A stretch of 64,000 nucleotides of DNA from Candidatus Aenigmatarchaeota archaeon. GTDB lineage: Archaea > Aenigmatarchaeota > Aenigmatarchaeia > QMZP01. The stretch is from positions 1,617 through 65,616 of the forward strand of contig JADHWJ010000002.1 of assembly GCA_016783545.1 (NCBI GenBank). The letters run 5' to 3'. Of the stretch, positions 13,633 to 35,473 are shown one piece after another (within the stretch, counting starts at the first letter, position 1; each line of letters starts with the position of its first letter). Under the pieces are notes generated by a model. That model did no database searches and had not been told where the DNA came from. It was given only the letters and a program-made list of their open reading frames with translations. A program made the position numbers and the translations under genes.

Positions 13633-13649
13633 TCCCTTTAAAATGACAA
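13633..13649 (-). repeat. Conserved site copy TTGTCATTTTAAAGGGA
   Basis: Preceded by hairpin 13656-13688 and CTTTATA; followed by a TATA box. Confidence 0.9.
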
Positions 13650-13996: not shown

Positions 13997-14185
13997 CGGT
14001 TTCTCCTTGAAAGACTCTTTCCAGACAACTGATTCCAGTTTCTGTTCAGAGCAAGACCTAAGAAAAACAGTTCTCTCAGTACGTGTGTTGGAAAAAAACA
14101 AAACAACATTTTACAGCCTGTTTTGCTAAAACAATATTACTATTCGTAATGTTATTTATAAGTGTTTTTTTAACAAGAAATTGAG

Positions 14186-14485
14186 CTATTCCTTTCTTTT
14201 TCCGCTGCCATATTTGTTATACCAGCAAAGAATTGTCCATCTGGAAACCTTTATGCCTTCATATCTTTCCAAGTGCTTTTTTGCTTCTGCAAGAGAAAAG
14301 CCCTTTTCATATAAAGAAACAGCTTTCATGATATCTTTTCTACTGAACCTCATTCTCCAATAACCATCATGCAATGTGAATTTCCTTCCGCATTTCTTGC
14401 AAAGCCTAAGTCTTTTCTTAGTCCTATCATTATACCTGTATCCCCTGAATACAATACTTTCTGAATCGCAATATGGGCACTTCAT
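14186..14485 (-). pseudogene. Zn-ribbon + HTH protein resembling an IS6/IS1-type transposase N-terminus; no DDE domain
   Basis: MKCPYCDS..CKKCGRKF, HTH ending VSRWTILCWYNKY; stop before any catalytic domain. Confidence 0.6.
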
Positions 14486-14566
14486 GCTTATCACTCTGTA
14501 CTAAAACTTTTGTTTTCAGAGCTAATAAATGTACTATTAGAGGGATATCTTCCGGCCTTATAAATA

Positions 14567-14583
14567 TCCCTTTTAATTGACAC
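14567..14583 (-). repeat. Conserved site copy GTGTCAATTAAAAGGGA
   Basis: Preceded by hairpin 14594-14615 and CTTTATA; followed by TATTTATAAG. Confidence 0.8.
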
Positions 14584-15968: not shown

Positions 15969-17990
15969 TTATACGAATTCTATCCTTTCAAACTTGCCTT
16001 TTTTCTCAAATTCCTTTACTGTAGAGATGAAAATAGTTGGCTTTCTCCCGCTTTCATAAGAGAATTTTGCAACTTCCTGTATGATTATGTTCTTTATGGA
16101 AGCGCTGGCGCATAAAAAATATTTGTTCTCTGAGACATCTTTTGCTATCTTGTCCCTGTCAAAACCAGTTTCTACCATAACAGAGATCTTTTTTCCACCT
16201 TCTTCAAATGTAAAGCAGTTCTTCTCTTCATTATATGTCCAGCCACTCTCAGAGAATATTGGATAGACATCATCTATGTTTATCTCCTTTTCCCCTTCTA
16301 TTCTACCAAATTGCTTCTCAAATATGCCCTGGCCAAGTTCTGTAAGATAATAATAATTTAGCTTGTTTTTCCCGACCTTTGCCTGTTTTATCTTAACCAG
16401 ACCAGAATCTATCAGGCCTCTTACATGTTTGTTAAATGTTGAGCCAGAAATCTTTACTGCTTTGTAAATCTGGGAAGTGAACGCAGCCCTGCCTTCACCC
16501 AAGACATGTAGTATATTCCAGCCCTGTTCTTCTAGTTCTTCTATCGGAATTTCGTCTGCTGGCTCCTTTTCAGACGAAGGCTCTTTTAGTCTTGCGAATA
16601 TTTCTGGAACCTGTGCTCTCATATGCTTTCTGACATCCTCATCTTTAATGGCACCTTTTCTCAATGAGTATTTTTTGAACTGGACAAGAAATGGGTCATG
16701 GAAAGCAGACATCCTCATTAGCATAAAACCATGCCCTATTGGTAGTTTTCTTAGATAGATACCCTGTTCTTCATAGTTTAGTCCTAGCATATTACTCGCA
16801 TCTAAGACATCAGACGCGTGTTTAGTATCCAGGCCCAGATTCATGTAGATATGTGTGGACGTGTTACCAAGTGCAGGATATGAAACAAGAGAAGGATGCT
16901 GGTCTATATAAATTATTCCCATACCAAGTTCCCTAATCTCTCTAAATATCAAATCCATGACTGTTTCTATACCAAGTGATGATGATTTTTCCCTATTCAA
17001 TACATGGTGCGCTTCTTCAAGTATAATAACACCCTGAAGCTCTTCCTTTTTCCCATGTATGAGAAGCCAATCTCTTATCCATTGAAGAATAATCTCTATG
17101 AAGAATGCCCTGTCATTTGCATCCAATGCATCTAGTTCTAATATGGTTATCTTTCCTTTCTGGAAAAATTCCGAGGGCTGAATACCTTCTTTGCATTTCC
17201 ATATCTCAGCAATCTCTCTGAAGCAAAGGCTTGCTAGAGGTCTTAGTGAAGTAGAAAGCCAGTTCCTTTCCCTTGATGAAAGAGACTCTCCTCCGTACCC
17301 CTCAAGCCAGCGTTTAATATCTGAAAGAATAGGATGCTGCTTCTCTTCGTGTATAGCATCCAGGCTTTTCATTATAAGATGCCTTCCGCCGCCCATAAGC
17401 ATGTACGCATGATCAAATATAGAAGAAAATTCCTTCATCCATTGGGATATCTGTATACCTTCTGGTGGTTTTAATGGATTGAATTTAAATGGTGCTGGAT
17501 CTCTTCCAATCGTATATACGTTTATGTGATCCTTTAGCTTTGTCTGTAAAAGATCCCTGTAATTTCTTTTGGAGAAATCAAATATCAGAATAGGAACATC
17601 ATTTTCGTTTATCTTATCTATAAGATCATATGCGATGTTTGTCTTTCCATAACCTGTAGAACCGAATATGCCTATGTGTGTAAGAAGCGCGTTCTTTCCT
17701 ATTTTCAGTGGATAGAGTCTTTTCTTTCCATATAGAACTTCTCCTATTTCTATATCACCAGACATTGCTATCTCTTTGTTTGGAGGTTCCATTAGAACAG
17801 AATCCCTTAGATCTTCATCAGAGAATGTAGCAGCCTTCAAAACATCAATAAGCTCAAATATTCTTTTCCTTGTGTCTTCGTCTGCCAGGAGGTATGCTCT
17901 TCCAAGTCTTGTAGCGCTTGCTTTTCCCAAGACAGGGATAAGTCTCTTTATTTCATCTGAAACCAGTCTTTCATGCATTTCTGTAACCAT
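15969..17990 (-). CDS. HerA/FtsK-like (DUF87) ATPase with C-terminal winged helix
   Basis: GIFGSTGYGKT Walker A, IILEEAHH Walker B, RELGMGIIYIDQHPS. Confidence 0.85.
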   Translation of the reverse strand: MVTEMHERLVSDEIKRLIPVLGKASATRLGRAYLLADEDTRKRIFELIDVLKAATFSDEDLRDSVLMEPPNKEIAMSGDIEIGEVLYGKKRLYPLKIGKNALLTHIGIFGSTGYGKTNIAYDLIDKINENDVPILIFDFSKRNYRDLLQTKLKDHINVYTIGRDPAPFKFNPLKPPEGIQISQWMKEFSSIFDHAYMLMGGGRHLIMKSLDAIHEEKQHPILSDIKRWLEGYGGESLSSRERNWLSTSLRPLASLCFREIAEIWKCKEGIQPSEFFQKGKITILELDALDANDRAFFIEIILQWIRDWLLIHGKKEELQGVIILEEAHHVLNREKSSSLGIETVMDLIFREIRELGMGIIYIDQHPSLVSYPALGNTSTHIYMNLGLDTKHASDVLDASNMLGLNYEEQGIYLRKLPIGHGFMLMRMSAFHDPFLVQFKKYSLRKGAIKDEDVRKHMRAQVPEIFARLKEPSSEKEPADEIPIEELEEQGWNILHVLGEGRAAFTSQIYKAVKISGSTFNKHVRGLIDSGLVKIKQAKVGKNKLNYYYLTELGQGIFEKQFGRIEGEKEINIDDVYPIFSESGWTYNEEKNCFTFEEGGKKISVMVETGFDRDKIAKDVSENKYFLCASASIKNIIIQEVAKFSYESGRKPTIFISTVKEFEKKGKFERIEFV

Positions 17991-20789: not shown

Positions 20790-21722
20790 ATGAAAACCGA
20801 AACAAACAGAGTTTGTAAATTAATAGCAGGTTTTGATATGGAATACGACATGCTGATAAGGAAGAAGTATTTGAAGGTTCAGGATAGGCTAGGCATGAGA
20901 ATAGGTATTCATGGCGGAACAAAGAAAATGCCTGTTCCAAGGACGGTTCAAGATGTTCTCAAAATTCTAAGAGAACTCTACAATATTGGCTTAAAGGCAT
21001 ACATATTACCAAAGGAGTTTTTTTCTAAGATAAAGGTTACAACAGATCTGTACACAACATATTACGGTGAGCTTCTAAAAATAAAGGATATAGCGAATAA
21101 ATATGACATTGAACTTAGCATTGAATATCCAAATCTTCCAGATCCTCCTGATGAAACACTGAAAATATTCATAACAATTGCATCTGTAATGGGATGCAGA
21201 ATGTTTATAGTAAGACCTGATTTCTATCCAATGGTTCCACAGGACCAGGCACTAAGGCTTACCGTCTATAAAATAAATGAGATTGTTTCTGAAGTTAATG
21301 CAAAAGCAAAAATCGGAATGGAAACAGCAGGGAAGATAGATGAATTAGGAAGCCTGGAGGACATTGTTGAAATAGCAAAAAGAACAAGGGAAACCAACAT
21401 TGTTATTAATTGGGGAAATATACATGCAAGGGGTTCTGGATCTTTGAGAACAACTGAAGATTTCGATAAGGTAGTAAAGAAGGTTTCAGAAGGTATAGGC
21501 GTAGGGTATTTCCGTGAAGCATTTTTTATATTCGGCGGAGTTTCATATGGACCATCTGGTCTTGTAAGGAAAATTCCTATAAAGAATTGTGACATGAAAC
21601 TAGAGGATCTGATAAAACAGATAATGACATATGGTATGAGAGGGACGCTTATTTTGGATGATCCTGGAAAGGAGCAATTTACACTCCAGATTCTGGATAG
21701 GCTTGCGGATACAGTAAGATAA
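20790..21722 (+). CDS. Endonuclease IV-like TIM-barrel protein with degenerate metal ligands
   Basis: ETAGKIDELGSLEDI, INWGNIHARG, GGVSYGPSG; true start may be 20838 or 20850. Confidence 0.7.
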   Translation: MKTETNRVCKLIAGFDMEYDMLIRKKYLKVQDRLGMRIGIHGGTKKMPVPRTVQDVLKILRELYNIGLKAYILPKEFFSKIKVTTDLYTTYYGELLKIKDIANKYDIELSIEYPNLPDPPDETLKIFITIASVMGCRMFIVRPDFYPMVPQDQALRLTVYKINEIVSEVNAKAKIGMETAGKIDELGSLEDIVEIAKRTRETNIVINWGNIHARGSGSLRTTEDFDKVVKKVSEGIGVGYFREAFFIFGGVSYGPSGLVRKIPIKNCDMKLEDLIKQIMTYGMRGTLILDDPGKEQFTLQILDRLADTVR

Positions 21723-22111
21723 TGAGTATTCTTAAACAATAATTTTTCTTTTTAAGTAACCAATACCAATTCAAGAGATATCAAAGCTCTTTTTGGCGTA
21801 AAACCCATTGAGCTTGTCCAACACATTTCACCAACTCATCAAGAGCTGGTTTAGAGAAGCTGTTTTCTTTCTTAGTTATCAGACTATCCTCTGTAAAGGA
21901 ACAATAGTCTTTTCTAGGTCTTCGGGAGCACTGTGTCCATTGGACTATGGCGGTAGAACATGGTAATGCCAATACGCAACCGTCCCATTGCAGCCATGCG
22001 CATAATTGGGAAATCGGTGGTGGCGGATTCTCTTTTCGCACCTCCCTTCTTGATGAAACCACTGACGCTTCGAGCAGTGCTATCCGAACTTTTTTTAGAA
22101 AGAGTTGGGTC

Positions 22112-22324
22112 ATGAATTACGTTGAGTGGAAGGTCAGAAACGCCCCAAAGAGGGAGAAGTGGTGGCAGAAGCTGCTTGCTATCATTATTCTTTGCTTGGG
22201 AGTAGCTCTCCTGGGCTGGCTTTTTGTTGATGCCTGGGAGAAGGAAGAGAGGTTCAGGGACGCCAGGCTGAAAGCGTTCCAAATAGAAAATGGAGTTGAC
22301 ATCAACGAAGTCAGCTCCAGATAG
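22112..22324 (+). CDS. Orphan single-pass membrane protein (70 aa)
   Basis: KWWQKLLAIIILCLGVALLGWLF TM segment; upstream start at 21947 also possible. Confidence 0.65.
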   Translation: MNYVEWKVRNAPKREKWWQKLLAIIILCLGVALLGWLFVDAWEKEERFRDARLKAFQIENGVDINEVSSR

Positions 22325-22408
22325 TATTGACACGACCCTCCCAACATAGAGAACAGTGTCAGTGCCAGAGATATGGGTTTGCCACAAGCTTACTCATACT
22401 CTGTTATA

Positions 22409-22425
22409 TTGTCATCTTAAAGGGA
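22409..22425 (+). repeat. Conserved site copy TTGTCATCTTAAAGGGA
   Basis: Directly upstream of GAAAAGGCTTATAAA promoter and ACTATAG-AACA-CTATAGT operator-like palindrome. Confidence 0.9.
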
Positions 22426-22462
22426 GAAAAGGCTTATAAACTATAGAACACTATAGTATACT

Positions 22463-22687
22463 ATGGAAACAACAACAATACAAATAACTGAGAATTTGCA
22501 AAATGAACTCAAATCCAGAAAAATATCAGAAAATGAAAGCTATGAAGAGGTTATATGGGATATGATAGAGGATACTATGGAACTTTCTGAACAAACCAAA
22601 AAAGATATAAGGGAAGCTGAAGAGGATATCAAAGCCGGTAGAGTTCATACACTTGAAGAGATTGAAAAGAGAATCAAAGATGATTGA
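22463..22687 (+). CDS. Antitoxin (DUF7557/VapB3-like), partner of RelE
   Basis: TTIQIT..ESYEEVIWDM..EEDIKAGRVHTLEEI; overlaps the toxin gene. Confidence 0.8.
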   Translation: METTTIQITENLQNELKSRKISENESYEEVIWDMIEDTMELSEQTKKDIREAEEDIKAGRVHTLEEIEKRIKDD

Positions 22688-22943
22688 AATGTATAATGTT
22701 ATTTTCTCTAAAAAAGCAGGAAAAGAGTTTGATAAATTGGAAAAAATAATTCAGAAAAGATTAGTTTCTGTAATCAAGAGGATAAGGATAAGACCTGAGG
22801 CTTTTGTTAGAAAGCTTGTCGGAGGACCTTATTATAGACTGAGAGTTGGTGAATACAGAGTAATTTTGGATATCAGAAAAGGAGAATTGATTATTCTGGT
22901 TATTTCTATTGGTCATAGAAGAAACATCTATAAGAGCCTTTAA
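22680..22943 (+). CDS. RelE/ParE family toxin
   Basis: YNVIFSKKAGKEF..YRLRVGEYRVI..IGHRRNIY. Confidence 0.92.
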   Translation: MIEMYNVIFSKKAGKEFDKLEKIIQKRLVSVIKRIRIRPEAFVRKLVGGPYYRLRVGEYRVILDIRKGELIILVISIGHRRNIYKSL

Positions 22944-22954
22944 TTTACTTAAAT

Positions 22955-22971
22955 TTGTCATTTTAGAGGGA
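22955..22971 (+). repeat. Conserved site copy TTGTCATTTTAGAGGGA
   Basis: 11 bp after the relE stop; followed by GAAAAAGCTTTATAAA and GTAAACA-AATA-TGTTTAC palindrome. Confidence 0.9.
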
Positions 22972-23017
22972 GAAAAAGCTTTATAAATATGTAAACAAAT
23001 ATGTTTACAGTGATTAT

Positions 23018-23254
23018 ATGGTTCAAGTTCAATTAAGAGTGCCAGATAATATGGTTAAGGATATTGATGGATGGGTAGAAGAAGGAAGATTCAAAAACAG
23101 AAGCGATGCTGTTAAAACAATTATATCTCTATATGAGGATAAGATGAAAACAATGGAATTCCTAAAAATGCTTGTAAATAGGAGCAAAGAAGCTGAAAAT
23201 AACCCTGAAAAATTGATACCCCTGGATGATCTGGATGTTAAAAGTTCTAATTAA
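23018..23254 (+). CDS. Ribbon-helix-helix (CopG/Arc/MetJ) antitoxin
   Basis: VQVQLRVP..IDGWVEEGRFKNRSDAVK. Confidence 0.88.
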   Translation: MVQVQLRVPDNMVKDIDGWVEEGRFKNRSDAVKTIISLYEDKMKTMEFLKMLVNRSKEAENNPEKLIPLDDLDVKSSN

Positions 23255-23308
23255 TAATAAAGCGAATTTTTACAGATATGCCTTGATCGGCATTATAGGA
23301 GGCATTGG

Positions 23309-23569
23309 ATGTTTAAGATACTTCTACACACTCTAAGTTTAAAATCTCTTGAAAAGCTGGATAAAGAAGTTCAGTTTCAAATAAGGAAGAAATTAAGAGA
23401 ACTTGAGGAATTTCCTGAACAAAGAGGTAAGCATTTAAGATATACACAATTCTGGAGTCTGAGAATAGGTGATTATAGAGCTATATATGAAATTAAAAAT
23501 AAAGAAGTTATTGTTCTTTTCATAGGTCATAGAGATAGAGTATATGATGATTTCTCAAAGATATTTTAG
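23309..23569 (+). CDS. RelE/ParE family toxin
   Basis: WSLRIGDYRAIY..FIGHRDRVY. Confidence 0.92.
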   Translation: MFKILLHTLSLKSLEKLDKEVQFQIRKKLRELEEFPEQRGKHLRYTQFWSLRIGDYRAIYEIKNKEVIVLFIGHRDRVYDDFSKIF

Positions 23570-23714
23570 ACAGACGATTTACTTAAATTTGTTTAAGCCT
23601 TTTAGAGGCAAATGAAACCTCCATTTAAACCAATAAGATCAAATGGAGAACCTACTGCCTTCTTTGGTTAAATCTTTTCGCAAAAGCCTTAAGTTCACCC
23701 AAAAACCCTTAAAA

Positions 23715-23731
23715 TTGTAATCTTAACGGGA
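23715..23731 (+). repeat. Conserved site copy TTGTAATCTTAACGGGA
   Basis: Followed by GAAAAAGCTTTATATA; same sequence at 52002. Confidence 0.9.
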
Positions 23732-24160
23732 GAAAAAGCTTTATATACCACTAATACAATTAATCTTATCTGTCACTATGTAATAGTGATAATTAAAGGG
23801 AGAACATGGGAGTAACTCATGTTCTATGAAACTTAAATAGAGTTGCAATGCAACCGAAAGTTTCATAAATAGTAATTACAAATAAAAGAGATCAGGTGTC
23901 AAATTTGTCCCGCAAGGGTGAATTTGGCAAACTCTCCCATCTTGGAACTGCCAGTTGGCAGTTCCTCTTGGACCATTGGTTGTAAAAGATCAATGGTTTT
24001 ATCCTTACAAACACAATTGAACTGGCTTACTATCTTCGGATATACCAGTTCAAACCGAGTGAATACACGGATTAAAGGGCCAAATTTTTCTAGTTCTGAG
24101 AATCTTCAATGATTTTCTTCAAGGTCTTTTGTCTGTCTACTCGGTAATTACATAATTGTT

Positions 24161-24500
24161 AGGGACAGGAAGCGGGGTCGGTAAAACCATCCCCGATTAC
24201 TATACATCGCAACGGTAGGAGTCGCGAGTCCGCCCGCAGTACCACGCCTAATGGCTGGTAATGGCCGGCATAATTCCTACCCGGGGTCGGAACCACCCCG
24301 CTTCCTCCCTTCGGCTTCTAAGGTATACAGCCCCCTTTAGAAGAATACACCGAAGGATTCAAACGGTTCAGGGGCAATGTGGTGCACCATAATATTACAT
24401 AGGAGTATATAGGTGCACAAGGACGCCGAAGGGAGTCCCGAAAATTTGTCGTACCTCACTATGACATATGGTGAGGCACTCGCGTCCTCTAAGAGGACAC
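24161..24500 (+). ncRNA. Candidate structured RNA / long leader
   Basis: AGGAAGCGGGGT pairs with ACCCCGCTTCCT and encloses GGTAGGA/TCCTACC; four more hairpins follow. Confidence 0.55.
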
Positions 24501-24546
24501 TGATGTTTCGCTGATGGAGTCTTTTTCACTGAAAGGAGTGAAAGAG

Positions 24547-25086
24547 ATGGAAGAAGAAAGACGGTCAGAAGAAAGAGCAGACGCATACGAAGAGTTGGGT
24601 GAGGTTGCTGTGCCCACACCCGAGACCGCGCCGGAACCCACGGGTGGGATCACGATCAGGTTCACTCGCGGGAACGTAGTTTCCGCATTGATCGGAGCCC
24701 TGATTTGTTTCGGGGTGATGTACCTGATCTCCGAGGGAAACGACCGGCGACAGGTCGACGAGATCACCGAGCTGCGCGAGGTCGGCCTGAAGCTGCACAC
24801 CCTGGCCCAGAAGGCGTTCGACAAGTGCCGGGATATCGAGGGCTACGAGCGGGCCACGTTGAAGGTCCCGGCGATTTTGGCAAAGGGGCAGAAGGTCGAG
24901 ACCGCACCGAAACCGAAGCCCCGACAGGTCGAGCCGGAGCCGCAGCCTGAACCGGTCTACGACGACCCGGAGCCCGAGGTCGTGGAGCCTGAGCCGGTCA
25001 CGACCAACGACGACCCTCGGACCGAGGATCCCCCACCCATCGCGAACGATGAGTTTGAGGATGGGGGCGACGAAGGCGGCGAGTAG
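24547..25086 (+). CDS. Orphan membrane-anchored protein with Pro/Glu-rich acidic tail
   Basis: AAAGGAG RBS; TM VVSALIGALICFGVMYLI; ELREVGLK motif; ends DEGGE. Confidence 0.8.
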   Translation: MEEERRSEERADAYEELGEVAVPTPETAPEPTGGITIRFTRGNVVSALIGALICFGVMYLISEGNDRRQVDEITELREVGLKLHTLAQKAFDKCRDIEGYERATLKVPAILAKGQKVETAPKPKPRQVEPEPQPEPVYDDPEPEVVEPEPVTTNDDPRTEDPPPIANDEFEDGGDEGGE

Positions 25087-25096
25087 TTTTCGCTGC

Positions 25097-25151
25097 AACG
25101 GGAGTCCTATAGGCCTCGGGACTTCCTTAACAAAATAAAGGGAGGCCTACT
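25097..25151 (+). repeat. 55-bp intergenic direct repeat, copy 1
   Basis: AACGGGAGTCCTATAGGCCTCGGGACTTCCTTAACAAAATAAAGGGAGGCCTACT identical at 26162-26216. Confidence 0.95.
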
Positions 25152-25190
25152 GATGGATGTTGACGTTCGACGGTAAGAAAGGGACACAAC

Positions 25191-26153
25191 ATGAGGACGA
25201 GAGCCCTCACGGCCGCGCTCATTTTCACGGCCGCAACCATAGGACTCGCTGGGAGCGCCCGCGAGCATTACAAGGTCGGCGTCCGGCACATGATTCAGGG
25301 GTCTGATGCATATAACCCCCGTGCCGCGATGGAGGCCTTCAGCAAGGTATGTGAAGCCGATCCCACGTACGGGAACTCGATTGGCTTTGCGAAGCCTGTC
25401 AAGGAGCAGCTGTTCAACGCTGCTATGGCGTACTTCTCCGAAGTTACGGAGTCAGAGATGACTCTGGAGAAGAAGTTGGAAGAGCTGACTGCGATTAGGA
25501 TTGCATTGTTCATGTGTAAGTCAGATCGAGGTCAGTTCTCAGAAGTTGACCAAAGTGGTCTGAACGCGAAGATCATGGCGGTCAACGCGGTAGCCCAACG
25601 GGTGCAGGAGGTCATTAGGGCGCAATCCCGACAGGCCGAGCCGGAGAAGTTCGACGCAGCCGCGACGATGCAAGAGGTCGCGACACGTTACGATACGGCC
25701 AAGCGAGAGCTGGCCTTCGCGTCTCAGCTCGTGGGAGAGGTCCTTGAACAGGACCCGGACCATGAGGAAGCGAATCGGGCCAGGGAGCTCCTTGAGATTC
25801 GCCTCATACCAGTGGATGAGTTCAATGAGCTCAATGCGACCGTCTCGTTGCTGAAACAGACGGTTAACGAGGCCGCGGACAAGATTCGCGAGGCCCGGCA
25901 GGATCACGCGCGCCGGGTCCTTTACTCGCGCGAGCTGCGCGAGGTCGGGCTGAAGTTTCACGAGCTCGCCGAGATCAGTTACAACAAGTGGCTGAAGTTG
26001 GCCAAGCCCGGAAGCGAGGCTCGGACGCTGAAGCTTCCGGAGGTGCTGGAATACGAGCCGTTCATCTCGGAGCAGGTCCTTGATCTGGTTCACGACGATG
26101 AGCAGCACGAAGGCGACGAGCACGAAGCCGACGACGACGAAGGCGGTGAGTAA
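25191..26153 (+). CDS. Orphan secreted helical (TPR-like) protein, paralog of 24547-25086
   Basis: Signal peptide MRTRALTAALIFTAA; ELREVGLKFHELA; ends DEGGE. Confidence 0.8.
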   Translation: MRTRALTAALIFTAATIGLAGSAREHYKVGVRHMIQGSDAYNPRAAMEAFSKVCEADPTYGNSIGFAKPVKEQLFNAAMAYFSEVTESEMTLEKKLEELTAIRIALFMCKSDRGQFSEVDQSGLNAKIMAVNAVAQRVQEVIRAQSRQAEPEKFDAAATMQEVATRYDTAKRELAFASQLVGEVLEQDPDHEEANRARELLEIRLIPVDEFNELNATVSLLKQTVNEAADKIREARQDHARRVLYSRELREVGLKFHELAEISYNKWLKLAKPGSEARTLKLPEVLEYEPFISEQVLDLVHDDEQHEGDEHEADDDEGGE

Positions 26154-26161
26154 CTAGCCGT

Positions 26162-26216
26162 AACGGGAGTCCTATAGGCCTCGGGACTTCCTTAACAAAA
26201 TAAAGGGAGGCCTACT
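26162..26216 (+). repeat. 55-bp intergenic direct repeat, copy 2
   Basis: Identical to 25097-25151. Confidence 0.95.
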
Positions 26217-26259
26217 TTGGACGTGAAGTTGGGACGTTTTCAGAAGAAGGAGTAGTACC

Positions 26260-26754
26260 ATGAGAGCGATCACGATCGCCCTTATCACCGTTGCCGGACT
26301 GTCGTTCATCGGGTCGGTCGAGGCAGCGGAGATCGATTTGGACGCCGCATTGGCGGAAGTGACGGCCGCGCCGGATACGACGGCCGCGCCGGTTCGGAGA
26401 AGTACCAGTGCCCAGAGGCCGGTGGTTCGGAGAAGCGCCACCAGGGTCGCATACCCGGCCGCTCAGGCGCATGCTGATGCCGCAGTCACGGACATTGAGT
26501 CCAGTATCACTGAGGCCGAGGCACACGGGCGTGTTCGCCGCGCCCAGGCTGATAGGGTAGTTTCCGCAGCAGAAGAGGCCGAGGCCATGGCAGATGCGGC
26601 GGCGGCTCGGGCCCGTAGGGCGCAGGCCGAGGCACGCTTCGAGGGTGCCCGGAGCGAATTCCATAGTGGTTGCAGCGATGCGGCTGCCACACAGTATCGG
26701 ACACATCTCCGGCGCGTGACCCGTGCCAGCGGAGGTCGGGTGCCTGTTCGGTAA
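26260..26754 (+). CDS. Orphan secreted Ala/Arg-rich coiled-coil protein
   Basis: GAAGGAG RBS; signal peptide MRAITIALITVAGLSFIGSVEA; internal 27-30 nt duplication (TTAAPVRRST/AQRPVVRRSA). Confidence 0.75.
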   Translation: MRAITIALITVAGLSFIGSVEAAEIDLDAALAEVTAAPDTTAAPVRRSTSAQRPVVRRSATRVAYPAAQAHADAAVTDIESSITEAEAHGRVRRAQADRVVSAAEEAEAMADAAAARARRAQAEARFEGARSEFHSGCSDAAATQYRTHLRRVTRASGGRVPVR

Positions 26755-26765
26755 TACCCGATCTC

Positions 26766-26809
26766 AACCTCCCCCTGGTGGCATACAACCAGCTTGCCAG
26801 GGGGAGGTT
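26766..26809 (+). terminator. 13-bp perfect hairpin (terminator or processing site)
   Basis: AACCTCCCCCTGG..CCAGGGGGAGGTT. Confidence 0.55.
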
Positions 26810-26879
26810 AGCGTCCTTAAAAAGCTGGTTTTTCACCAGACCAGTCAAAACAACGAGACCTTCTTGAAAGGAGGTTGTC

Positions 26880-27239
26880 ATGTGGAGAATAAGTACAGGC
26901 GAGCTGGCACTTTTGATCATCGGCAGCTTTGTTGCCGGTGCAGTTGTTGCCGGCTTTCTTAGTCGGTTGGTGCGGGGTCGAGGCAAGCCGTCTCCGGCAG
27001 CTCAGCCAGTGCCAGTGCCGAGCGAGTCGGAAGTCGTTCTGACGAAAAGGGAGCTGACGGCTCTGGTGAAGAGCCAGGTTGTTAGTGCTCTCAAGGAGAA
27101 GGAGCTGGGAGCACAGCCCGAGCCGATAGAGCCGCCGGAGTTGACCAAACTGTCGGTAGAAGAAGTGGTTGATGCAATACCCGAATCAATCACCGCCGAG
27201 AAGGAGGAGGAAGTACCCGAGAAAGGAGAAGACTCATGA
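26880..27239 (+). CDS. Orphan single-pass membrane protein
   Basis: AAAGGAGG RBS; TM LALLIIGSFVAGAVVAGFL. Confidence 0.75.
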   Translation: MWRISTGELALLIIGSFVAGAVVAGFLSRLVRGRGKPSPAAQPVPVPSESEVVLTKRELTALVKSQVVSALKEKELGAQPEPIEPPELTKLSVEEVVDAIPESITAEKEEEVPEKGEDS

Positions 27240-27826
27240 GGAATCTGAGTTTCGCCGCCATCATAGCGGCTCTCCTTCTTGTAGGTTGTGAGAGGGAGAA
27301 GAGTTCCAGCAGCCGAGGGCGCACAACCAGGCGCGCCGCCGATGGGGAGAAGTTGACCCTTCGGGACCTGCAGGCGGATCCTAACGGGTTCGCTATCGTG
27401 GACCCAGACCGCCGGCGAATGAAGCTCCCCATGAGCTTCAGAATCGTCAGAGCCATGGACGGCGGGTCCGGTGAGGAAGTTATGCTGGTCGCTTATCTTG
27501 GGGGTGAGGAGAGCCCCAGCGATGAGCAGGACGGGGTTGAGGAAGATGTACCGCCGAACTATGTTCTCGTCCGGGTTCGGCGGGCGTGTGGTGTAGATCT
27601 CCTTGGCGGGGAGACGAACGCCAACTGCCGCCTCTTTGTGAAGAAGTTCGAGCGCAAAGGGACGGTGGAGATGGGCGATCACGGTGACGAATTGTATGTA
27701 ATCACGGTCGCTCGCGGGGACATCTACTACAACTACGACGTCATGTCCCTGAGCGGCGATAACATGACGGATACGGTTGAGCGAGACCGGCCGCCGGATC
27801 CGGTGCGGCACCACAGCTACCCGTAA
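27236..27826 (+). CDS. Orphan putative lipoprotein
   Basis: MRNLSFAAIIAALLLVG-C lipobox; ATGA overlap with the previous gene. Confidence 0.75.
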   Translation: MRNLSFAAIIAALLLVGCEREKSSSSRGRTTRRAADGEKLTLRDLQADPNGFAIVDPDRRRMKLPMSFRIVRAMDGGSGEEVMLVAYLGGEESPSDEQDGVEEDVPPNYVLVRVRRACGVDLLGGETNANCRLFVKKFERKGTVEMGDHGDELYVITVARGDIYYNYDVMSLSGDNMTDTVERDRPPDPVRHHSYP

Positions 27827-27989
27827 GGGAAATGAATACCAGGTCCCTCCCAAGGGGTGGAGGGGCCTGGTGGCCTCTTGAGAGAAAGGAGATGAAAATC
27901 ATGTTGTGACGCCTTTCACAAAAACAACACAATGTTGAGGGTACGGCAACAGTACCAGAAAGGGAGTGGCGCCCCACAGTTGCTTTATG

Positions 27990-28025
27990 ATGTCTTTTTA
28001 ACGGTATATACCATTAACTTGACTG
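27990..28025. repeat. Two degenerate conserved sites head-to-head (27990-28006 +, 28009-28025 -) around palindrome GGTATATACC
   Basis: ATGTCTTTTTAACGGTA and CAGTCAAGTTAATGGTA, each preceded by a hairpin. Confidence 0.7.
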
Positions 28026-28060
28026 AGTAAAGGGGAAGTTGTTCCCCTTGTAATTACTCC

Positions 28061-28993
28061 TTATTTGATTTGATTCAGCTCTTCGTGAAAGCTTCTCCCA
28101 GCAGGGACCATGTCGTCTGTAACCCTGGGGTACTTCTCCCTTTTCTGTAGCAGACGGTTGGTGGCCTCTTCGAGTCGGTGTTTGAGCCCTTGCATGGGCT
28201 CATAAGAGGGCCTGGGCCAGATCAGGATACCACCATCCTTGAGAGAGTATGTGAGTCCGAAGGGCTCAAGGAGTATGGTTAGTATGGCACCAACAGACCC
28301 TTCGAGGCATTCCACCTGCTCGATCTTGATATGGTCCTCCCTATTGACCATCAGGTCGAAGGTCACCTTAAACCCCCCAATATCAGCTAGACCACTCACC
28401 AACTCTTCGAGTGTGATTGAAAGAGGGCTGGGCTGGAAGGTTATTTCCTTATCGAGCTTCTTCAAGAGATCGATCTTCCAACGCTGCTCTGAACCAAACT
28501 CTTTTTCCAGGTCCTCGTCCACCTTCATCTGGTAGAGTTTGTTGCAGATCTTAGTCCTCTCTTCAGCTGCTCGGAGTTGGGTAAAGAGCCGTGCCTCTCT
28601 CTTATTACGGGGCTCTTCCACAGCACTCTTCAGACTAGCTTTGGCTGTTTTGAGCTGTTCCTTAAGGCTCGCTTCAGTTGTCTGATACCCTTCGACCCTT
28701 TTGCGGAGATCCTCGAGCTCCTTTTGGGCTTGGTCCCTTTCCCCCTCTGCGATTCGGAGCATCTTGATGAAAGGGCCGTTGTGCTTGGCCTTTTCGAGTT
28801 TCTGGTTCTCTGCTGAGAGTCTCTTTACCTCGGTTCGAAGCTCAGCGAGCTCAGGTTCGTACTTGGCTTTCAGCTCTTCTCGAACCCGGTTTTCACCTTC
28901 CTTTACGAGCCGACTGACCTCCTCTTGGAGACCTAGATCACCCGCAAAGGCCAGTGCTGTGAAGCATAGTGATACAGCGATTCTTCTGTACAT
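28061..28993 (-). CDS. Secreted coiled-coil protein with STN/secretin-N-like domain
   Basis: Signal peptide MYRRIAVSLCFTALAFAG; TLEELV..ILTILLEPFGLTYSLKDGGILI. Confidence 0.75.
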   Translation of the reverse strand: MYRRIAVSLCFTALAFAGDLGLQEEVSRLVKEGENRVREELKAKYEPELAELRTEVKRLSAENQKLEKAKHNGPFIKMLRIAEGERDQAQKELEDLRKRVEGYQTTEASLKEQLKTAKASLKSAVEEPRNKREARLFTQLRAAEERTKICNKLYQMKVDEDLEKEFGSEQRWKIDLLKKLDKEITFQPSPLSITLEELVSGLADIGGFKVTFDLMVNREDHIKIEQVECLEGSVGAILTILLEPFGLTYSLKDGGILIWPRPSYEPMQGLKHRLEEATNRLLQKREKYPRVTDDMVPAGRSFHEELNQIK

Positions 28994-30369: not shown

Positions 30370-33300
30370 TTATGATGACTGAGGGATGGTATCAGGTTCC
30401 TGAGGAACTGTATCTGGTTCTTGGGGAACGGTATCCGGTTCTTGTGGGCTACCATCAGGTTCTTGGTCACCACCACCATCGCTCATAGTACTCCAACTAA
30501 CAGGACACGCAAGTCCACCGCAGCTGAATGTATTAAAGTCACACTCAGGAGTCTCTCCCCTTGGGCAGTCAACATCCTTTCCTTTAAAACTTGAAGCAAG
30601 TCTTGTCCAGAAGCTCTTCTCTGAACAGCATTTTATTCCACCAAATTCTAACTTAGTGCTCTTTGTATCAATTCTTTGGTATGTATAGTTTGCATTCCCT
30701 CTTAACACAAACGTCTTTGAAGGCACTTCTAGGTCTGTAAGGCCTTGTTTAAAGTAACAAGATGCAACATATACACCTTTCAGCTGGCTGAAAGCAGCTT
30801 TGTCCCATACCAGCTTATTACCATCTTTTCTTGGAGCAGGATAACAGTCATTTTCGTGGCTAAAGCCAGGAACATTTTCAAGGAATTCTCCAGGGAACTC
30901 CAGTTCTATGAATTTCATATCAGTAATGTTTCCTTTGTTTCCCTGTGCTCCGGCAAGATTTATATCCACACTGAAAGGCATTCCCTCTGTAATCGGCTGT
31001 TCCTGAGTGTCTATGTTAAGCCTTACAGGGGCGTTTGTAAGTGTTGCCGCCTTCTTTGCTACTGATACTATACCTTCCCTTGTCCTTCTATCCCATTCAT
31101 CCCTGCCCATGAACTCAATCTCAAAGCTTGAGTCTATCTTGTACTTGTACATCACTACGGCTGTTAATGGTATGAATTTCTCCCTTAGGTTAGTGGATAA
31201 TGTGGTTGCGCAATCTATCATATCTGTTGCAGGGAAGAATACCTCTGTTGAAGCTAATTTGTTTAGATTTCTGTCAGGTGTTTGCAGTGGCTGTTCACAA
31301 TATCCAGGAGTGCCTCTCCTGAAGTCGTCATCACCTATATTTGTATTATGACATGCAATTTCAAGTTCAGTGTCGTCTACAAATCCAAGCTGGCCTATAT
31401 TGATATAGGTTTCATCCCCAGGCGCCCAGCTCGGGTCGTAATGAAGCGGAGAGCTAATCCTTATAGATACCTCTTCTGCGTCGAACGCGCCCTTATTATC
31501 AAGCTTGAGAGAGACAGTGTATGGCCTGCAGACATAGATAAGGCTAGTTCTAAAGCTGGTTATTTCAATACCATATGCTCCTGCCAAGCCTGTGTCAGAG
31601 TCTGTTGCGTATGAACCATTCATCATCTGTTGGGCATAACCAACAGGGTTTGTCAATAGTTTCCATCCAGTTCCGAACATGCCACCAAAGCCTGTGAACA
31701 GCTCTGCTAGTGGTTTGAATACGTCAGAGAAGCCTGTATAAACAGTTGGGAACCAGTCTCCAAGTATTGCTCCGCCAACTTCCTGGGTGCCTGGACCGAA
31801 TGCATATATTACTGTAGCTGCGCCTAGCATAAGCATACCAACTTCTGCTCTGTTCTCTGTGGGCGCGAAGAACCCAGCCACAAACGTGACAAACCAGAAA
31901 TACAGGAAGAATCCCTTAAGTAAGCCGGTCAGCTCCCATCCAACCCCTCCAATCATCTGGAAAAGCCCTCCCATACCGATATCTCCGCTAAATACCATCA
32001 ACAGAGCAAGGACTATGAAAATTGGAGCGCCCATTGGTATTTTTGAAATAGCAAAAAGCAAGCCAATTCCAACAAATACAATTGCAATGGCCCAGCCTCC
32101 AAGTGCTCCAGAACCTATTAATGCAATTCCCATTAATAATGCAAAAACGAATTTCATTGGTATTTCGTAGAGTGACAGTCTTTCATCTACATCTGCTGTT
32201 GGCGCTCCGCCAGCGCCTCTGTTCGCATGCGGTGGCGCAATAAAGAATGCCCATGCTATAAGCGCAAGAACCCATGAATCAAAAATACTAAGGAACGCAA
32301 ATGGTATGAATGTACATCCCAGAATGAACCTGTATGTGGAATCTATAAACTGTGAAGGATTATATCTATCCCCTAAATCATATCCATGTGAATAGCTAAG
32401 ATAACCAACAAAAAGAGTTATTATTCCGAAAAGGTTGAAGAAAGGAATTTCACTTTTTACAAAAAGACCCATGAACCCTCCGCCCATGAAGCCTGCATAC
32501 ATTCCTATTATTGCTGCTGACTTGAAGAAACTCTTTGTGAAGGCCATGCTGTAGTGGTGCCTTCCTGGTCTGTCATGGTGCATGTCTGATACAGCTCTGT
32601 GTAAATTTCCACCATACCCTCTGAATGACCTGCCTATCCCTCTGCCCCAATGACCTACACGTCCGAATCCACCATGGCGTATATCGAGTCCGGTCAAATC
32701 CGCATCTCGTATGGCTCTATCATCTTCAGGTTGGTCTCCCATTGGCCAATAGTCTGCTGGGTTAGGGAACATGTAATAGGCTGCCCAAGAAAAGAATCCA
32801 ACTATAAACCAGAAGTTTCCGGTCATTGATGACACAATCAGGCCGATTGCTACTAATGCAATGGTGGGCATATAGTCCCTGATGCTCCAGTGGGAGTAGG
32901 CGTCTCTCCAATGGAGTTCGCCTCTTTCCTTTTTCTTTTCCTTTAATGTAAATGTTATCTTGTAAACATGGTTTTTACAGTCAACATCAACATTATATTC
33001 TTCTGGATCAGGATCATGGGTATTACATAAACATCTCACATCATATACATTAGCTACGTTTGTTAGGAATGTAAAGAATCTTACCTTTTTCTTTGCAGGC
33101 ACATCTGCCAGTTTAAATGTTGAATTGGTTGGTTGAGGATCACAATGAACACTTACATTTTCTGCTTCCAAATCACTGGCTTTATTATCAATATAAACTA
33201 CAATCTTACAGCCTGGGCCAGCGGGGCCAGCAGGAGGTGGACCACCAGGAGGACCACCAGGAGGACCAGCAGGAGGACCACCAGGACCAGCAGGAGGTGG

Positions 33301-34515
33301 AGCACCAGGAGGACCAGCAGGAGGACCACCAGGACCAGCAGGAGGTGGAGCACCAGGAGGACCACCAGGACCAGCAGGAGGTGGAGCACCAGGAGGACCA
33401 GCAGGAGGACCACCAGGACCAGCAGGAGGACCACCAGCAGGAGCAGGCGCTGCAGCAGCCGGGCCTCCAGTATAATGAGCAACTACAGAATAGTTCTGGT
33501 CCATTTTTATATCTATTTCAGAATCACCGGTGTACAGATCAACATCAGGTATTGTATGTGGTGGTACTCCTGGTTGCCGGGCTGCAAGACCATCTCTGAC
33601 ACCAGTTATTTTATTTGGAACTGCTGGTGGAGCTGGCATACCTGGACCAAATCTATTCTCTAATATATCACCAGGCCACAAATTAACACCGTTTACTGTC
33701 CAATGGTCAAAAGTATAACCCGGATTAGGTCTTTGATGAATAGTTACAACAGAATCCTTTGCAGGTTCTGATTTTCCGTGCAGATTAACCCAACCAGCTT
33801 TTTCAGGTGCTTCATTAACAGCAAGAATAACTTTACCAGGTGGAGGTACAGGAGCCGGAGCAGGTGCTGGAGGAGGCGGAGCAGGAGCGGGTGGAGGAGG
33901 TTGCAATTGAAAATATGCTACGATGGTAGTATCTGCATTTAAATTAACGATTCTGGCCGGGTTGACGGATCCATCTTCCCATTTTTGAAAGACATAAAGG
34001 TTTCCACCAATAGCAACATTGTTATTGACAATGATATTTTTTACACCAGCCTTTAGTTTACCCTTATATGTGGTTGTTTTAGATGAACCATCTAGTGTAA
34101 AAGGAACACCTTTCATCGGCAAAGAATCAACAACCAATGTAAATTTATTTCCACCACCAGCACAACTACCAGTTGCTGTTATACTAATTTTTTTTGTTGC
34201 TAAAACTTTAGCGTTACTATCAATAACTTCAATAGTGATAACATGCTCACCTGGTACTATACCTGTTTTTGCATGGATATTTAATCCATTAGTGAAAAGA
34301 CCAGTATTATTTATGAGTTGTGCTGAATCATATATTCCATCTGTTCTTTCTGGTGGTTCAACCGACCCAAACCATGCAATAAGTTTTGGAAGAGATTTTA
34401 TTCTGATATCTATTAATTCATTTTGTGGTCCCCTGACATTGAATCCTAAAGTACTAGGTTTGCAAATTTTTACATTTGTTTTAGATACAGTGCTAATTTC
34501 TGCTAAACTAGGCAA
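30370..34515 (-). CDS. Large surface/membrane protein with Ig-like domains, Pro/Gly repeats and multi-pass core
   Basis: 1381-aa ORF, GGTGA RBS before TTG; InlB-B-repeat-like GYTFDHWTVNG; PGGPP repeats; many TM segments; LKLDNKGAFDA CARDB-like segment. Confidence 0.8.
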   Translation of the reverse strand: MPSLAEISTVSKTNVKICKPSTLGFNVRGPQNELIDIRIKSLPKLIAWFGSVEPPERTDGIYDSAQLINNTGLFTNGLNIHAKTGIVPGEHVITIEVIDSNAKVLATKKISITATGSCAGGGNKFTLVVDSLPMKGVPFTLDGSSKTTTYKGKLKAGVKNIIVNNNVAIGGNLYVFQKWEDGSVNPARIVNLNADTTIVAYFQLQPPPPAPAPPPPAPAPAPVPPPGKVILAVNEAPEKAGWVNLHGKSEPAKDSVVTIHQRPNPGYTFDHWTVNGVNLWPGDILENRFGPGMPAPPAVPNKITGVRDGLAARQPGVPPHTIPDVDLYTGDSEIDIKMDQNYSVVAHYTGGPAAAAPAPAGGPPAGPGGPPAGPPGAPPPAGPGGPPGAPPPAGPGGPPAGPPGAPPPAGPGGPPAGPPGGPPGGPPPAGPAGPGCKIVVYIDNKASDLEAENVSVHCDPQPTNSTFKLADVPAKKKVRFFTFLTNVANVYDVRCLCNTHDPDPEEYNVDVDCKNHVYKITFTLKEKKKERGELHWRDAYSHWSIRDYMPTIALVAIGLIVSSMTGNFWFIVGFFSWAAYYMFPNPADYWPMGDQPEDDRAIRDADLTGLDIRHGGFGRVGHWGRGIGRSFRGYGGNLHRAVSDMHHDRPGRHHYSMAFTKSFFKSAAIIGMYAGFMGGGFMGLFVKSEIPFFNLFGIITLFVGYLSYSHGYDLGDRYNPSQFIDSTYRFILGCTFIPFAFLSIFDSWVLALIAWAFFIAPPHANRGAGGAPTADVDERLSLYEIPMKFVFALLMGIALIGSGALGGWAIAIVFVGIGLLFAISKIPMGAPIFIVLALLMVFSGDIGMGGLFQMIGGVGWELTGLLKGFFLYFWFVTFVAGFFAPTENRAEVGMLMLGAATVIYAFGPGTQEVGGAILGDWFPTVYTGFSDVFKPLAELFTGFGGMFGTGWKLLTNPVGYAQQMMNGSYATDSDTGLAGAYGIEITSFRTSLIYVCRPYTVSLKLDNKGAFDAEEVSIRISSPLHYDPSWAPGDETYINIGQLGFVDDTELEIACHNTNIGDDDFRRGTPGYCEQPLQTPDRNLNKLASTEVFFPATDMIDCATTLSTNLREKFIPLTAVVMYKYKIDSSFEIEFMGRDEWDRRTREGIVSVAKKAATLTNAPVRLNIDTQEQPITEGMPFSVDINLAGAQGNKGNITDMKFIELEFPGEFLENVPGFSHENDCYPAPRKDGNKLVWDKAAFSQLKGVYVASCYFKQGLTDLEVPSKTFVLRGNANYTYQRIDTKSTKLEFGGIKCCSEKSFWTRLASSFKGKDVDCPRGETPECDFNTFSCGGLACPVSWSTMSDGGGDQEPDGSPQEPDTVPQEPDTVPQEPDTIPQSS
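33215..33465 (-). repeat. Low-complexity tandem repeat encoding (P/A)GGPP
   Basis: Iterated CCAGCAGGAGGACCACCAGGA units. Confidence 0.9.
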
Positions 34516-35110: not shown

Positions 35111-35473
35111 ATGAATGAAGAAGCTAAAAAATGGATGAAAAAAGCAGAAGATGATTTTGAAAATGCGGAAATTCTTCTTAGGAATAAAAAATATGATGGT
35201 GCAATGTTTTTCTCCCAACAAGCCGCAGAAAAGGCTCTAAAGGCAATTTCTATCGAGAAATTTAACAGGCTGAGAAAAATCCATGATTTGGTGGAGCTTG
35301 GGAAAGATGTGAATCTTGATAAGAATCTTCTTGAAAACGCAAAAGAGCTTACAATGGCATATATTTATTCTAGGTATCCTGATGCTGAAGAAATTAAAGA
35401 TTTGAAAAAGCTTTCTGAAAATCTTGCTGAATATTCAAGGAGGATAGTAGAATGGGTAAAAAAGAGTCTGTGA
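35111..35473 (+). CDS. HEPN domain protein (HEPN-MNT pair)
   Basis: FFSQQAAEKALKA, KIHDL, YIYSRYPD. Confidence 0.92.
   Translation: MNEEAKKWMKKAEDDFENAEILLRNKKYDGAMFFSQQAAEKALKAISIEKFNRLRKIHDLVELGKDVNLDKNLLENAKELTMAYIYSRYPDAEEIKDLKKLSENLAEYSRRIVEWVKKSL

Follow-up and report, generated by a model that had tools for sequence, protein, structure and literature searches.

Copies of a short conserved box separate accessory transcription units, including two toxin-antitoxin pairs, at a probable insertion hotspot in an Aenigmatarchaeota genome

The stretch of DNA analyzed here, hereafter the window, comprises 64,000 nucleotides (nt) of a Candidatus Aenigmatarchaeota archaeon (GenBank assembly GCA_016783545.1, contig JADHWJ010000002.1, positions 1,617 to 65,616 of the forward strand), and the subject of the analysis is a run of small genes and gene groups at 21.8–28 kb of the window that are separated by copies of one short element, called the box below. 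The genome, designated G000, is a metagenome-assembled genome (MAG) of 886 kb in 18 contigs with a GC content of ~36%, which is 70% complete; coordinates without a prefix are those of the window, and C4, C12, C13, and C16 denote other contigs of G000. To the right of a native gene (20790–21722), the locus comprises a small GC-rich island carrying a gene for an orphan membrane protein, two toxin-antitoxin (TA) pairs of the RelE/ParE superfamily (TA-1 and TA-2), a remnant without an open reading frame (ORF), and a larger GC-rich island of five genes (island 6) (Table 1). A preliminary description of the sequence had recognized the positions of the boxes, the two RelE/ParE pairs, and a broken box copy, all of which were found as placed by direct reading, pattern searches, and Pfam, and the modules are indeed separated by copies of one site; its reading of the whole as an integron-like or pdif-like array fared less well. 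With no integrase in the 15.5–36.5 kb scanned, no attC cores, and a promoter of its own for each unit, the system is not an integron, but a box-delimited system of accessory units that is related in layout to cassette arrays, and the locus is an insertion hotspot of this dispersed, cassette-like system. The window from 21243 to 28915 is reproduced at 99.99–100% identity by independent assemblies from four other samples, and the junctions between AT-rich and GC-rich DNA are therefore real and not assembly chimeras. Contigs that encode identical TA proteins represent the same strain (99.99–100% identity), and their value is confined to confirmation of the assembly.

The box is a 17-mer that extends to ~28 nt with its flanks (consensus cTTTATatTGTCAtTTaAgAGGGATAtA). 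Direct reading of 21500–28400 together with a pattern search located the 17-mer TTGTMATYTTARMGGGA at 22409, 22955, and 23715 (boxes 1–3), and each of these copies is followed by GAGAAAARGC and TTTATA and then by a private repeat or palindrome. Since the TATA-binding protein (TBP) is encoded in G000, the host is archaeal, and the string 'GAAAARGCTTTATA' that follows the box can be read as an archaeal promoter, composed of a transcription factor B recognition element (BRE) and a TATA box, rather than as a part of a recombination site. Relative to ORF starts throughout G000, TATA-like hexamers are most frequent at −32 to −27, and the generic AAANNTTTATA promoters show nothing conserved 5′ of the BRE; the 17-mer is thus an element separate from the promoter. 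The broken box (23578–23608) retains both arms intact, its central CA being replaced by TTAAGCC (the intact form at 22944–22968 has CA), and no promoter follows it. The site that had been listed at 27990 is a degenerate copy (TGTCTTTTTAACGGTAT, one mismatch to the family pattern) within a convergent pair (27991–28025), which closes island 6 on one side and, on the other, the GC-rich unit that lies to the right on the minus strand; similar convergent pairs are located at C12 41135/41184 and C13 9220/9258. The promoter-operator type of box 3 recurs at 52002, 8566 (−), C13 21850, and C16 19871 (−).

Table 1. Features of the locus and the gene of the candidate box-binding protein, in window coordinates.
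Feature	Position	Strand	Basis or remark
Gene for a 98-aa Zn-ribbon/helix-turn-helix (HTH) protein (14186–14485), sole G000 homolog	14186–14583	−	Outside the array
Orphan-island promoter and AT-rich 5′ leader: TTTTTAAG..CAATAC, GTAAAA-loop hairpin, TCCAACAC, AGAGAA at 21853, TTTCTTAG	21740–21950	+	Leader alignment
Orphan membrane ORF, 70 aa, cargo of the small GC-rich island	22112–22324	+	ORF list; same gene called in independent assembly L015
Terminator-like hairpin ending the orphan island, linker GTTATA	22358–22405	+	RNAfold dG −16.8 kcal/mol (48 nt before box) vs. control mean −5.1
Box 1, 17-mer TTGTCATCTTAAAGGGA	22409–22425	+	3′-end element of the orphan island; not upstream of the TA-1 ortholog in the related genome G008
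TA-1 promoter: BRE GAGAAAAGG, TATA CTTATAAA; operator repeats ACTATAG-AAC-ACTATAG-TAT-ACTATGG	22426–22462	+	Sequence
Antitoxin 1, 74 aa, weakly VapB-like	22463–22687	+	Pfam VAPB_antitox E=7e-4, under cut-off
Toxin 1, RelE/ParE superfamily, 87 aa	22680–22943	+	Pfam ParE_toxin (PF05016) 38.7 bits vs. cut-off 23
Box 2: private left flank TTTACTTAAAT and 17-mer TTGTCATTTTAGAGGGA (22955–22971)	22944–22971	+	3′-end element of TA-1; left copy of the 26-nt repeat around TA-2
TA-2 promoter GAAAAAGC and TTTATAAA; operator palindrome TGTAAACA-AATA-TGTTTACA (22990–23009)	22971–23017	+	Sequence
Antitoxin 2, 78 aa, ribbon-helix-helix type	23018–23254	+	Weak matches to RHH_1, ParD family, CdrS
Toxin 2, RelE/ParE superfamily, 86 aa	23309–23569	+	Pfam ParE_toxin (PF05016) 45.7 bits vs. 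cut-off 23
Broken box: TTTACTTAAATTTGT (23578–23592), TTAAGCC, TTTTAGAGG (23600–23608)	23578–23608	+	Right copy of the 26-nt repeat
ORF-less remnant, hairpin CTCCATTT..AAATGGAG (23619–23648), linker CTTAAAA	23609–23714	+	Sequence; no plus-strand ORF of at least 40 aa
Box 3 TTGTAATCTTAACGGGA (23715–23731), BRE/TATA GAAAAAGCTTTATATA, operator palindrome TGTCACTATGTAATAGTGA (23771–23789)	23715–23789	+	Sequence, pattern search
Long leader of island 6: leader blocks at ~24055–24140, GC-rich structured segment 24140–24513	23790–24513	+	Blocks read against the leader alignment
Cargo of island 6: GC-rich ORFs of 190, 320, 164, 119, and 196 aa, all five co-oriented	24514–27826	+	ORF list
GC-rich hairpin after the last island 6 ORF, CCAGGTCCCTCC..GGAGGGGCCTGG	27839–27871	+	Sequence
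Convergent box pair: TGTCTTTTTAACGGTAT (+, 27991–28007) and a weaker inverted copy (28008–28025), central TATATA in common	27991–28025		Sequence, pattern search

Relaxed searches found about 52 boxes in the G000 genome, which are spread over most contigs in both orientations. From this number, 0.36 boxes would be expected in the 6.2 kb of the locus, compared with the five that are present (P(≥5) = 4e-5), and the 18-mer GGGAGAAAARGCTTTATA has six matches in the window against 0.39 expected. C4, C13, and G008 have small arrays of a similar kind, and the majority of the boxes are dispersed. Approximately 5% of the genes carry a box, and nearly all of these genes are foreign or accessory. Three other identities of the box were considered and rejected: a generic promoter, because the box is missing from generic promoters and numerous boxes are directed toward a convergent gene or a second box; a tRNA-derived att site or known RNA, because tRNA and Rfam searches of the window and region gave no match; and a recombinase core with strong dyad symmetry, because the complementarity is weak. 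A comparison of box variants shared by the two sides of an island (TTAACGG around island 6 and TTAGAGG around an island on C13) was not used, as two cases are too weak a basis.

In TA-1 and TA-2, the ATG lies 29 and 38 nt, respectively, after the start of the TATA box of the predicted promoter (GAGAAAARGC and TTTATAAA), and the palindromes or repeats stand between TATA and ATG, the usual position of an operator, and are conserved in the orthologs. In each pair, a small antitoxin gene stands immediately ahead of the toxin gene, and the gene for toxin 1 overlaps the end of that for antitoxin 1. Both pairs can be read as ordinary autoregulated type II RelE/ParE operons. Toxin 1 and toxin 2 share only 29% identity, and their antitoxins are unrelated to each other, so that the operons are not the result of a recent tandem duplication. 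The distance of about 10 bp between the end of each TA module and the next site, given in the preliminary description, is 11 nt for RelE-1, the stop codon of which precedes box 2, and 8 nt for RelE-2, which precedes the broken copy. A direct repeat of 26 nt, 11 nt of which are private to the 3′ flank of TA-1, stands on either side of TA-2, and the second copy is damaged exactly at its center; a TA module on C4 is flanked by repeats of ~45 nt (~85% identity by eye). The expected enrichment of TA pairs at the box was found in G000, in which three of the five RelE/ParE loci lie directly behind a box (p = 5e-8), as does one VapBC pair, and this link is specific to the G000 lineage. The TA pair near box 52002, which had been put forward as a further case, does not belong here: its AbrB/MazE-type antitoxin and RelE/ParE toxin (51410–51950, −) are divergent from the box and have their own TATA and palindrome, and the box precedes an unrelated 86-aa ORF, so that the proximity of the TA pair is one of adjacency and is not driven by the box. 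A HEPN and nucleotidyltransferase (MNT) TA pair at 35111–35772 (+) has no box ahead of it.

The history of the locus can be read in part from the relatives. Orthologs of the native gene were found in every relative searched (47–57% identity). In G008, the order is the ortholog of the native gene, a kinase-like gene, and an ortholog of TA-1, both proteins of which are 58% identical to those of the window; this synteny shows TA-1 to be ancestral at the locus and not, as previously supposed, a captured cassette. The G008 operon has the same TATA and operator (CCTTTATAAACTATAACACACTATAGATTACTATG) and no box upstream, and the stop codon of its RelE-1 overlaps a half-box (TTGTCTATTTAAG). Because promoter and operator are kept there without an upstream box, the box marks the 3′ end of the preceding unit and not the start of the next, box 1 closing the orphan island and box 2 closing TA-1. 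The preliminary description was correct in the order of site, 'GAAAARGCTTTATA', and operator at the head of each TA module, but not in its assignment of the site as the start of the module. The orphan island, TA-2, and island 6 are missing from the locus in G008, which is the one relative examined that keeps TA-1 there, and GC-rich islands of this type appear to be lineage-specific. The best relatives of TA-2 occur in unrelated contexts, namely in G029, a member of another family in which toxin 2 is 72% identical, and as a 65% identical pseudogene in G006. The native flanking gene, on the other hand, is ~50% identical in the family of G029. Antitoxin 2 is ~75% identical by eye to the orthologs in both genomes, and the operator TGTAAACA-N4-TGTTTACA accompanies TA-2 in both. 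Judged by this distribution, TA-2 is probably horizontally mobile. In G029, the promoter of the TA-2 ortholog (L089, G029:C13) is preceded by TTGTCAGTGGGTAAAATGA, which is like a shortened box, in a family without the box pattern. The locus had also been called the place where units of the system accumulate. Gain of units is borne out by the three units missing in G008, the patchy occurrence of TA-2, and the 26-nt duplication; the locus is not the sole site of accumulation, given the further arrays and the dispersal of most boxes.

Approximately 44 GC-rich islands (47–60% GC) constitute 5% of the G000 genome, and ~22 boxes abut such islands; in every case the box follows the island and has the same orientation. 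Between the stop of the final GC-rich ORF and the box lie 34–85 nt, and this interval contains a strong hairpin (median folding free energy, dG, of −11.4 vs. −5.1 in the control), followed by a T-rich linker (cTTTATA) and then the box. The post-island hairpins are unrelated in sequence between copies, and none is present before the boxes that follow TA modules. In an all-against-all comparison, the internal sequence shared by islands was confined to the box and the promoter-operator, and the islands are thus not copies of one element. At their 5′ ends, the G000 islands share an AT-rich leader of ~200 nt (21740–21950, 24055–24140, 13990–14170 (−), and 14 other loci of G000), and that of the orphan island aligns with 16 others. 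It consists of TATA and AATAC, a covarying hairpin whose loop is a conserved GTAAAA, TTCACAC, AGAGAA, TTCTTAG, and GTCTT..GGAGG-ATG; position 21853, from which the array had been thought to start, is the AGAGAA block of the orphan-island leader. The leader has no Rfam match and might be a new cis-regulatory RNA leader; when it was sought in the array of G008, only a faint resemblance was seen.

The cargo of the islands looks foreign in composition, and of bacterial type where it can be placed. The GC content at the three codon positions of the orphan ORF, which matches no Pfam family, is 0.49/0.34/0.63, compared with 0.2–0.3 at the third position (GC3) in native genes. The five ORFs of island 6 have a GC3 of 0.58–0.75 (0.20–0.31 in native genes); each encodes a signal peptide, a transmembrane segment, or a lipobox (LVGC), and none matches a Pfam or NCBIfam family. 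No homolog of the 320-aa protein was found in 5.8e9 proteins or 1.84e9 representatives by a word-indexed search and exhaustive HMMER. The first of these ORFs is preceded by a non-coding segment of 374 nt (24140–24513, +) with a predicted fold of −145.7 kcal/mol (z = −5.8 vs. shuffled sequences) and no Rfam match at E≤1. Within island 6, an intergenic repeat of 84 nt is present at 25068–25151 and 26135–26216 (90% identity), each copy being ahead of an ORF and containing a hairpin and a ribosome-binding site (AAAGGGAGG) in bacterial or phage style. The cargo of the G000 islands further includes proteins with prepilin-type N-termini, a VIT/vWA protein, and a sugar-phosphate isomerase with a Gfo/Idh/MocA partner. 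The isomerase, the one cargo protein whose gene was traced, shares ~70% identity with proteins named from Planctomycetota, Brocadiia, and Armatimonadota, and its best match (82%) is encoded on a bacterial contig from the same study (L019, ERZ24794679) with a uniform GC content of 62–67%. The nucleotide homology is confined exactly to the coding sequence, and the gene was not found in any of 30 relatives (0/30). Organisms like that of the ERZ24794679 contig are candidate donors.

Three further genes of the window are of note. A 673-aa ATPase with HerA (DUF87), TrwB-like, and winged-helix domains (15969–17990, −), which could be a DNA translocase, is located between two GC-rich islands. A 136-aa ORF (13187–13597, −) lies directly behind the box at 13649 (−), and the C-terminus of its product resembles, by eye, the helix-hairpin-helix C-terminal domain of the bacterial RNA polymerase alpha subunit. 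A 1381-aa membrane protein (30370–34515, −) has a long Pro/Ala/Gly repeat, and its gene is of intermediate GC content (0.41–0.48).

The box is conserved well beyond G000. The pattern TGTCWWTTWARMGGGAT (≤1 mismatch) was found in 15 of the 31 genomes of the order, at least two copies being present in 13 of them; a reversed-pattern control gave 0–1. All 19 copies in G008 have the same anatomy, namely a GC-elevated upstream region, a hairpin, the linker TTTRTAT, the box, and ATA, and the distance from the box to the next ORF varies from 4 to 131 nt. G008 also contains a four-box array of GC-rich genes for secreted proteins, and this array includes a gene for the Zn-ribbon/HTH protein. Searches of GTDB genomes, IMG/VR, and JGI metagenomes for the combination of box and promoter (class-A pattern) gave no true match; two metagenome matches lie inside coding sequence and are due to chance.

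The distribution of the Zn-ribbon/HTH protein follows that of the box: among the 31 genomes, it is encoded in all 13 with at least two boxes and in none of the 18 with 0–1 boxes (0/18), and in nine of the 13 its gene lies ≤~120 nt from a box. In G000, a box (14583–14567) and an inverted box (14547–14529) flank the TATA (14566–14556) of its promoter. The protein contains DNA-binding domains only, with no DDE or other catalytic domain. Its NCBIfam matches are to transposase N-termini of the insertion sequence (IS) families IS6 (E=2.7e-5) and IS1 (E=3.8e-5), which fall well short of the cut-offs, and an alignment over 92 aa shows 36% identity between it and the N-terminus of a protein of 300 aa in the genome G017 that carries DDE_Tnp_IS240 (E=2e-21). 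On inspection, no similarity to the box was obvious at the ends of this full-length IS6-like element of G017. The 98-aa protein is most likely the factor that binds the box. Literature searches found no description of this box and protein system.

A feasible model, to which an even chance may be given, is that the locus is composed of five independent transcription units (the orphan island, TA-1, TA-2, the ORF-less remnant, and island 6), that the Zn-ribbon/HTH protein binds the boxes, and that the boxes are docking points at which new units are joined. Each unit has its own archaeal BRE/TATA promoter and operator and a box at its end, which after the GC-rich, foreign-looking islands is fused to the terminator-like hairpin. 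TA-1 would be the old resident, TA-2 would have entered later at the box of TA-1, duplicating it, and the islands would have been added on either side. The duplication of the TA-1 box together with its private flank around TA-2 argues for insertion at the box. New units would be joined next to existing ones at boxes by an enzyme other than the 98-aa protein, arrays would grow there, and the boxes may in addition punctuate transcription between units. The model builds on the anatomy of the units, the conservation of the box across genera, the co-occurrence of protein and box, the synteny of TA-1, and the duplication around TA-2; we infer from these that the protein binds the box and that units are inserted at boxes.

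Several observations weigh against docking. The dyad of the box is weak (best mean complementarity 0.47–0.55), unlike that of typical recombinase core sites, and a role in transcription alone would be just as compatible with the placement of the box, which is immediately ahead of promoters or else flanked by a TATA-like linker and a TATA. The Zn-ribbon/HTH protein lacks a DDE domain and hence cannot itself catalyze insertion; no transposase related to it was found in the 70%-complete G000 assembly, and neither a recombinase domain nor a transposase with a catalytic domain was found by a Pfam scan of the ORFs of 15.5–36.5 kb. Most islands have a recognizable box at the 3′ end only. The identical left flank of 11 nt on both copies around TA-2 requires a longer shared site or a duplicative mechanism. 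In ten relatives, none of the 16 RelE/ParE genes is near a detected box (0/16), and no structural variation was seen among the four other assemblies that are identical to the window.

The chief alternative, which is less likely, is that the box is purely transcriptional, that is, an operator or insulator of a domesticated transposase-derived factor that stops read-through and regulates the next promoter; the units would then have arrived by illegitimate or homologous recombination, and the arrays would reflect permissive intergenic space. A protein with DNA-binding domains alone suits this role, as does the placement of boxes around the TATA of its own gene, a classic autoregulatory layout, and of other boxes right after a hairpin and T-rich linker and right before BRE/TATA. 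The 28-nt consensus has TATA-like sequence at both ends, and its deep conservation across genera is like that of a host cis-element. However, a regulator of this kind leaves it hard to explain, without a link to acquisition, why so few genes carry the box and why nearly all of them are foreign or accessory. Convergent box pairs, and boxes that face the 3′ end of a convergent native gene, regulate nothing downstream; the variable distance between box and ORF and the duplication of the TA-1 box and flank around TA-2 are likewise at odds with a transcriptional element.

The recombination systems to which the locus had been likened find far less support. It is very unlikely that the boxes are dif-like targets of a host XerA-type recombinase, as in the pdif modules of Acinetobacter plasmids: TA modules are typical cargo of pdif modules and deep conservation of the site would suit a host recombinase, but the flanking sites are direct repeats rather than inverted pairs, there is no 11-6-11 dyad, and the box tracks the Zn-ribbon/HTH protein perfectly, a pattern that is explained without Xer. 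A genuine integron, or a cluster of attC sites lacking an integron integrase (CALIN), with the boxes as attC sites moved by an IntI-type tyrosine recombinase, is highly improbable. Clusters of attC sites without an integrase are reported from archaea, two Aenigmatarchaeota MAGs among them (PMC9668308), and the local array is co-oriented and includes TA modules. Nevertheless, the box contains no conserved RYYYAAC/GTTRRRY pair of inverse cores, and GTT is not conserved in it (variants TTAGAGG, TTAAAGG, TTAACGG); besides the weak dyad and the lack of a recombinase in the 15.5–36.5 kb scanned, no hairpin accompanies the boxes after TA modules, every unit has its own promoter (BRE/TATA 29–38 nt before the ATG, or before the leader), and boxes are scattered over most contigs in both orientations. 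The absence of any system, the box being a strong consensus promoter copied by tandem TA duplication or the AT/GC mosaic being an assembly chimera, is scarcely credible even for a 70%-complete MAG in which the class-A element holds a near-consensus BRE/TATA and both toxins belong to one superfamily, because the toxins are so divergent and the antitoxins unrelated, the 17-mer lies outside the generic promoter and is also present without a following promoter, the junctions were assembled independently in other samples, and the same anatomy is found in other genera.

It is tempting to speculate further, though quite tentatively, that the box and its protein form a family-owned platform for cross-domain gene capture. 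The Zn-ribbon/HTH protein would mark 28-nt boxes, and incoming DNA, often bacterial and with its own terminator hairpin, would be joined behind an archaeal promoter, operator, and leader; TA modules such as TA-2 would ride along and stabilize the arrays, and the 21.8–28 kb locus would preserve, in small and still legible form, four insertions that took place one after another beside an ancestral TA pair. DPANN archaea have tiny genomes and rely on other cells, and the ways in which they obtain and tame genes of foreign origin are of interest. The box and the putatively transposase-derived protein, which occur together across 13 genera, offer a concrete pair of site and protein for such capture, or at least for the control of captured genes, and in the TA array a stepwise history may be read, from an ancestral TA pair to a later mobile one with a duplicated box and islands on both sides. 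If docking is true, this would be a cassette-accretion system made from parts unrelated to integrons; if it is false, the DNA-binding domain of a transposase would still have been turned into a regulator of acquired genes.

Several known systems share parts of this layout. The Correia elements of Neisseria and the enterobacterial repetitive extragenic palindromic (REP) sequences and bacterial interspersed mosaic elements (BIME) are repeats that carry terminators or promoters, and InsA of IS1 represses by binding the terminal repeats. Like the former, the boxes are short, dispersed, intergenic repeats at gene ends in which hairpin or terminator features are combined with promoter features, and, like InsA, the candidate box protein is small, putatively transposase-derived, and may recognize a sequence resembling an IS end. 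By contrast, those repeats are not known to be tied to cargo of foreign composition, and in G000 the hairpins vary and only the adjacent box is conserved. In the pdif modules of Acinetobacter plasmids and the TA cassettes of the Vibrio superintegron, TA pairs with their own promoters are thought to stabilize the array, and the locus resembles them in having small TA modules of this kind between copies of a site of recombination type. However, pdif sites are inverted pairs of 28-bp XerC/XerD sites (11-6-11), whereas the boxes are direct repeats without an Xer-type dyad at a chromosomal archaeal locus, in which TA-1 is vertically inherited.

Integron arrays and CALINs are similar in that the genes are unrelated to one another, are frequently atypical in composition, and finish with a copy of a single structured or conserved site (PMC9668308); the arrays are co-oriented, TA modules and secreted proteins are among the cargo, and genes have crossed between domains. 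Archaeal integron cassettes are enriched in TA genes and in proteins with signal peptides (Ghaly et al., 2022; PMC9668308). The differences are substantial. The box system has no attC cores, no IntI or attI was found in the 15.5–36.5 kb scanned, and the sites are dispersed in the genome. Its units have their own promoter and operator and, in G000, also a conserved leader of ~200 nt, whereas integron cassettes are mostly promoterless and depend on the common promoter Pc. An attC site consists of inverse cores that enclose a hairpin, whereas the box is an asymmetric element of 17–28 nt beside a hairpin, and it co-occurs with a putatively transposase-derived Zn-ribbon/HTH protein.

The logic of the docking model would be closest to that of the arrays formed around copies of IS26, a member of the IS6 family, which arise through targeted conservative cointegration of translocatable units (PMC7885326, PMC6952201). 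What is repeated in G000 is a box of 28 nt and not an IS of 820 bp, and no DDE transposase was found in the assembly. In both cases, segments lie between directly oriented copies of one element; new segments join beside an existing copy, as they may do at the box, and the candidate box protein has a resemblance, below the family cut-off, to the N-terminal DNA-binding part of IS6-family transposases.

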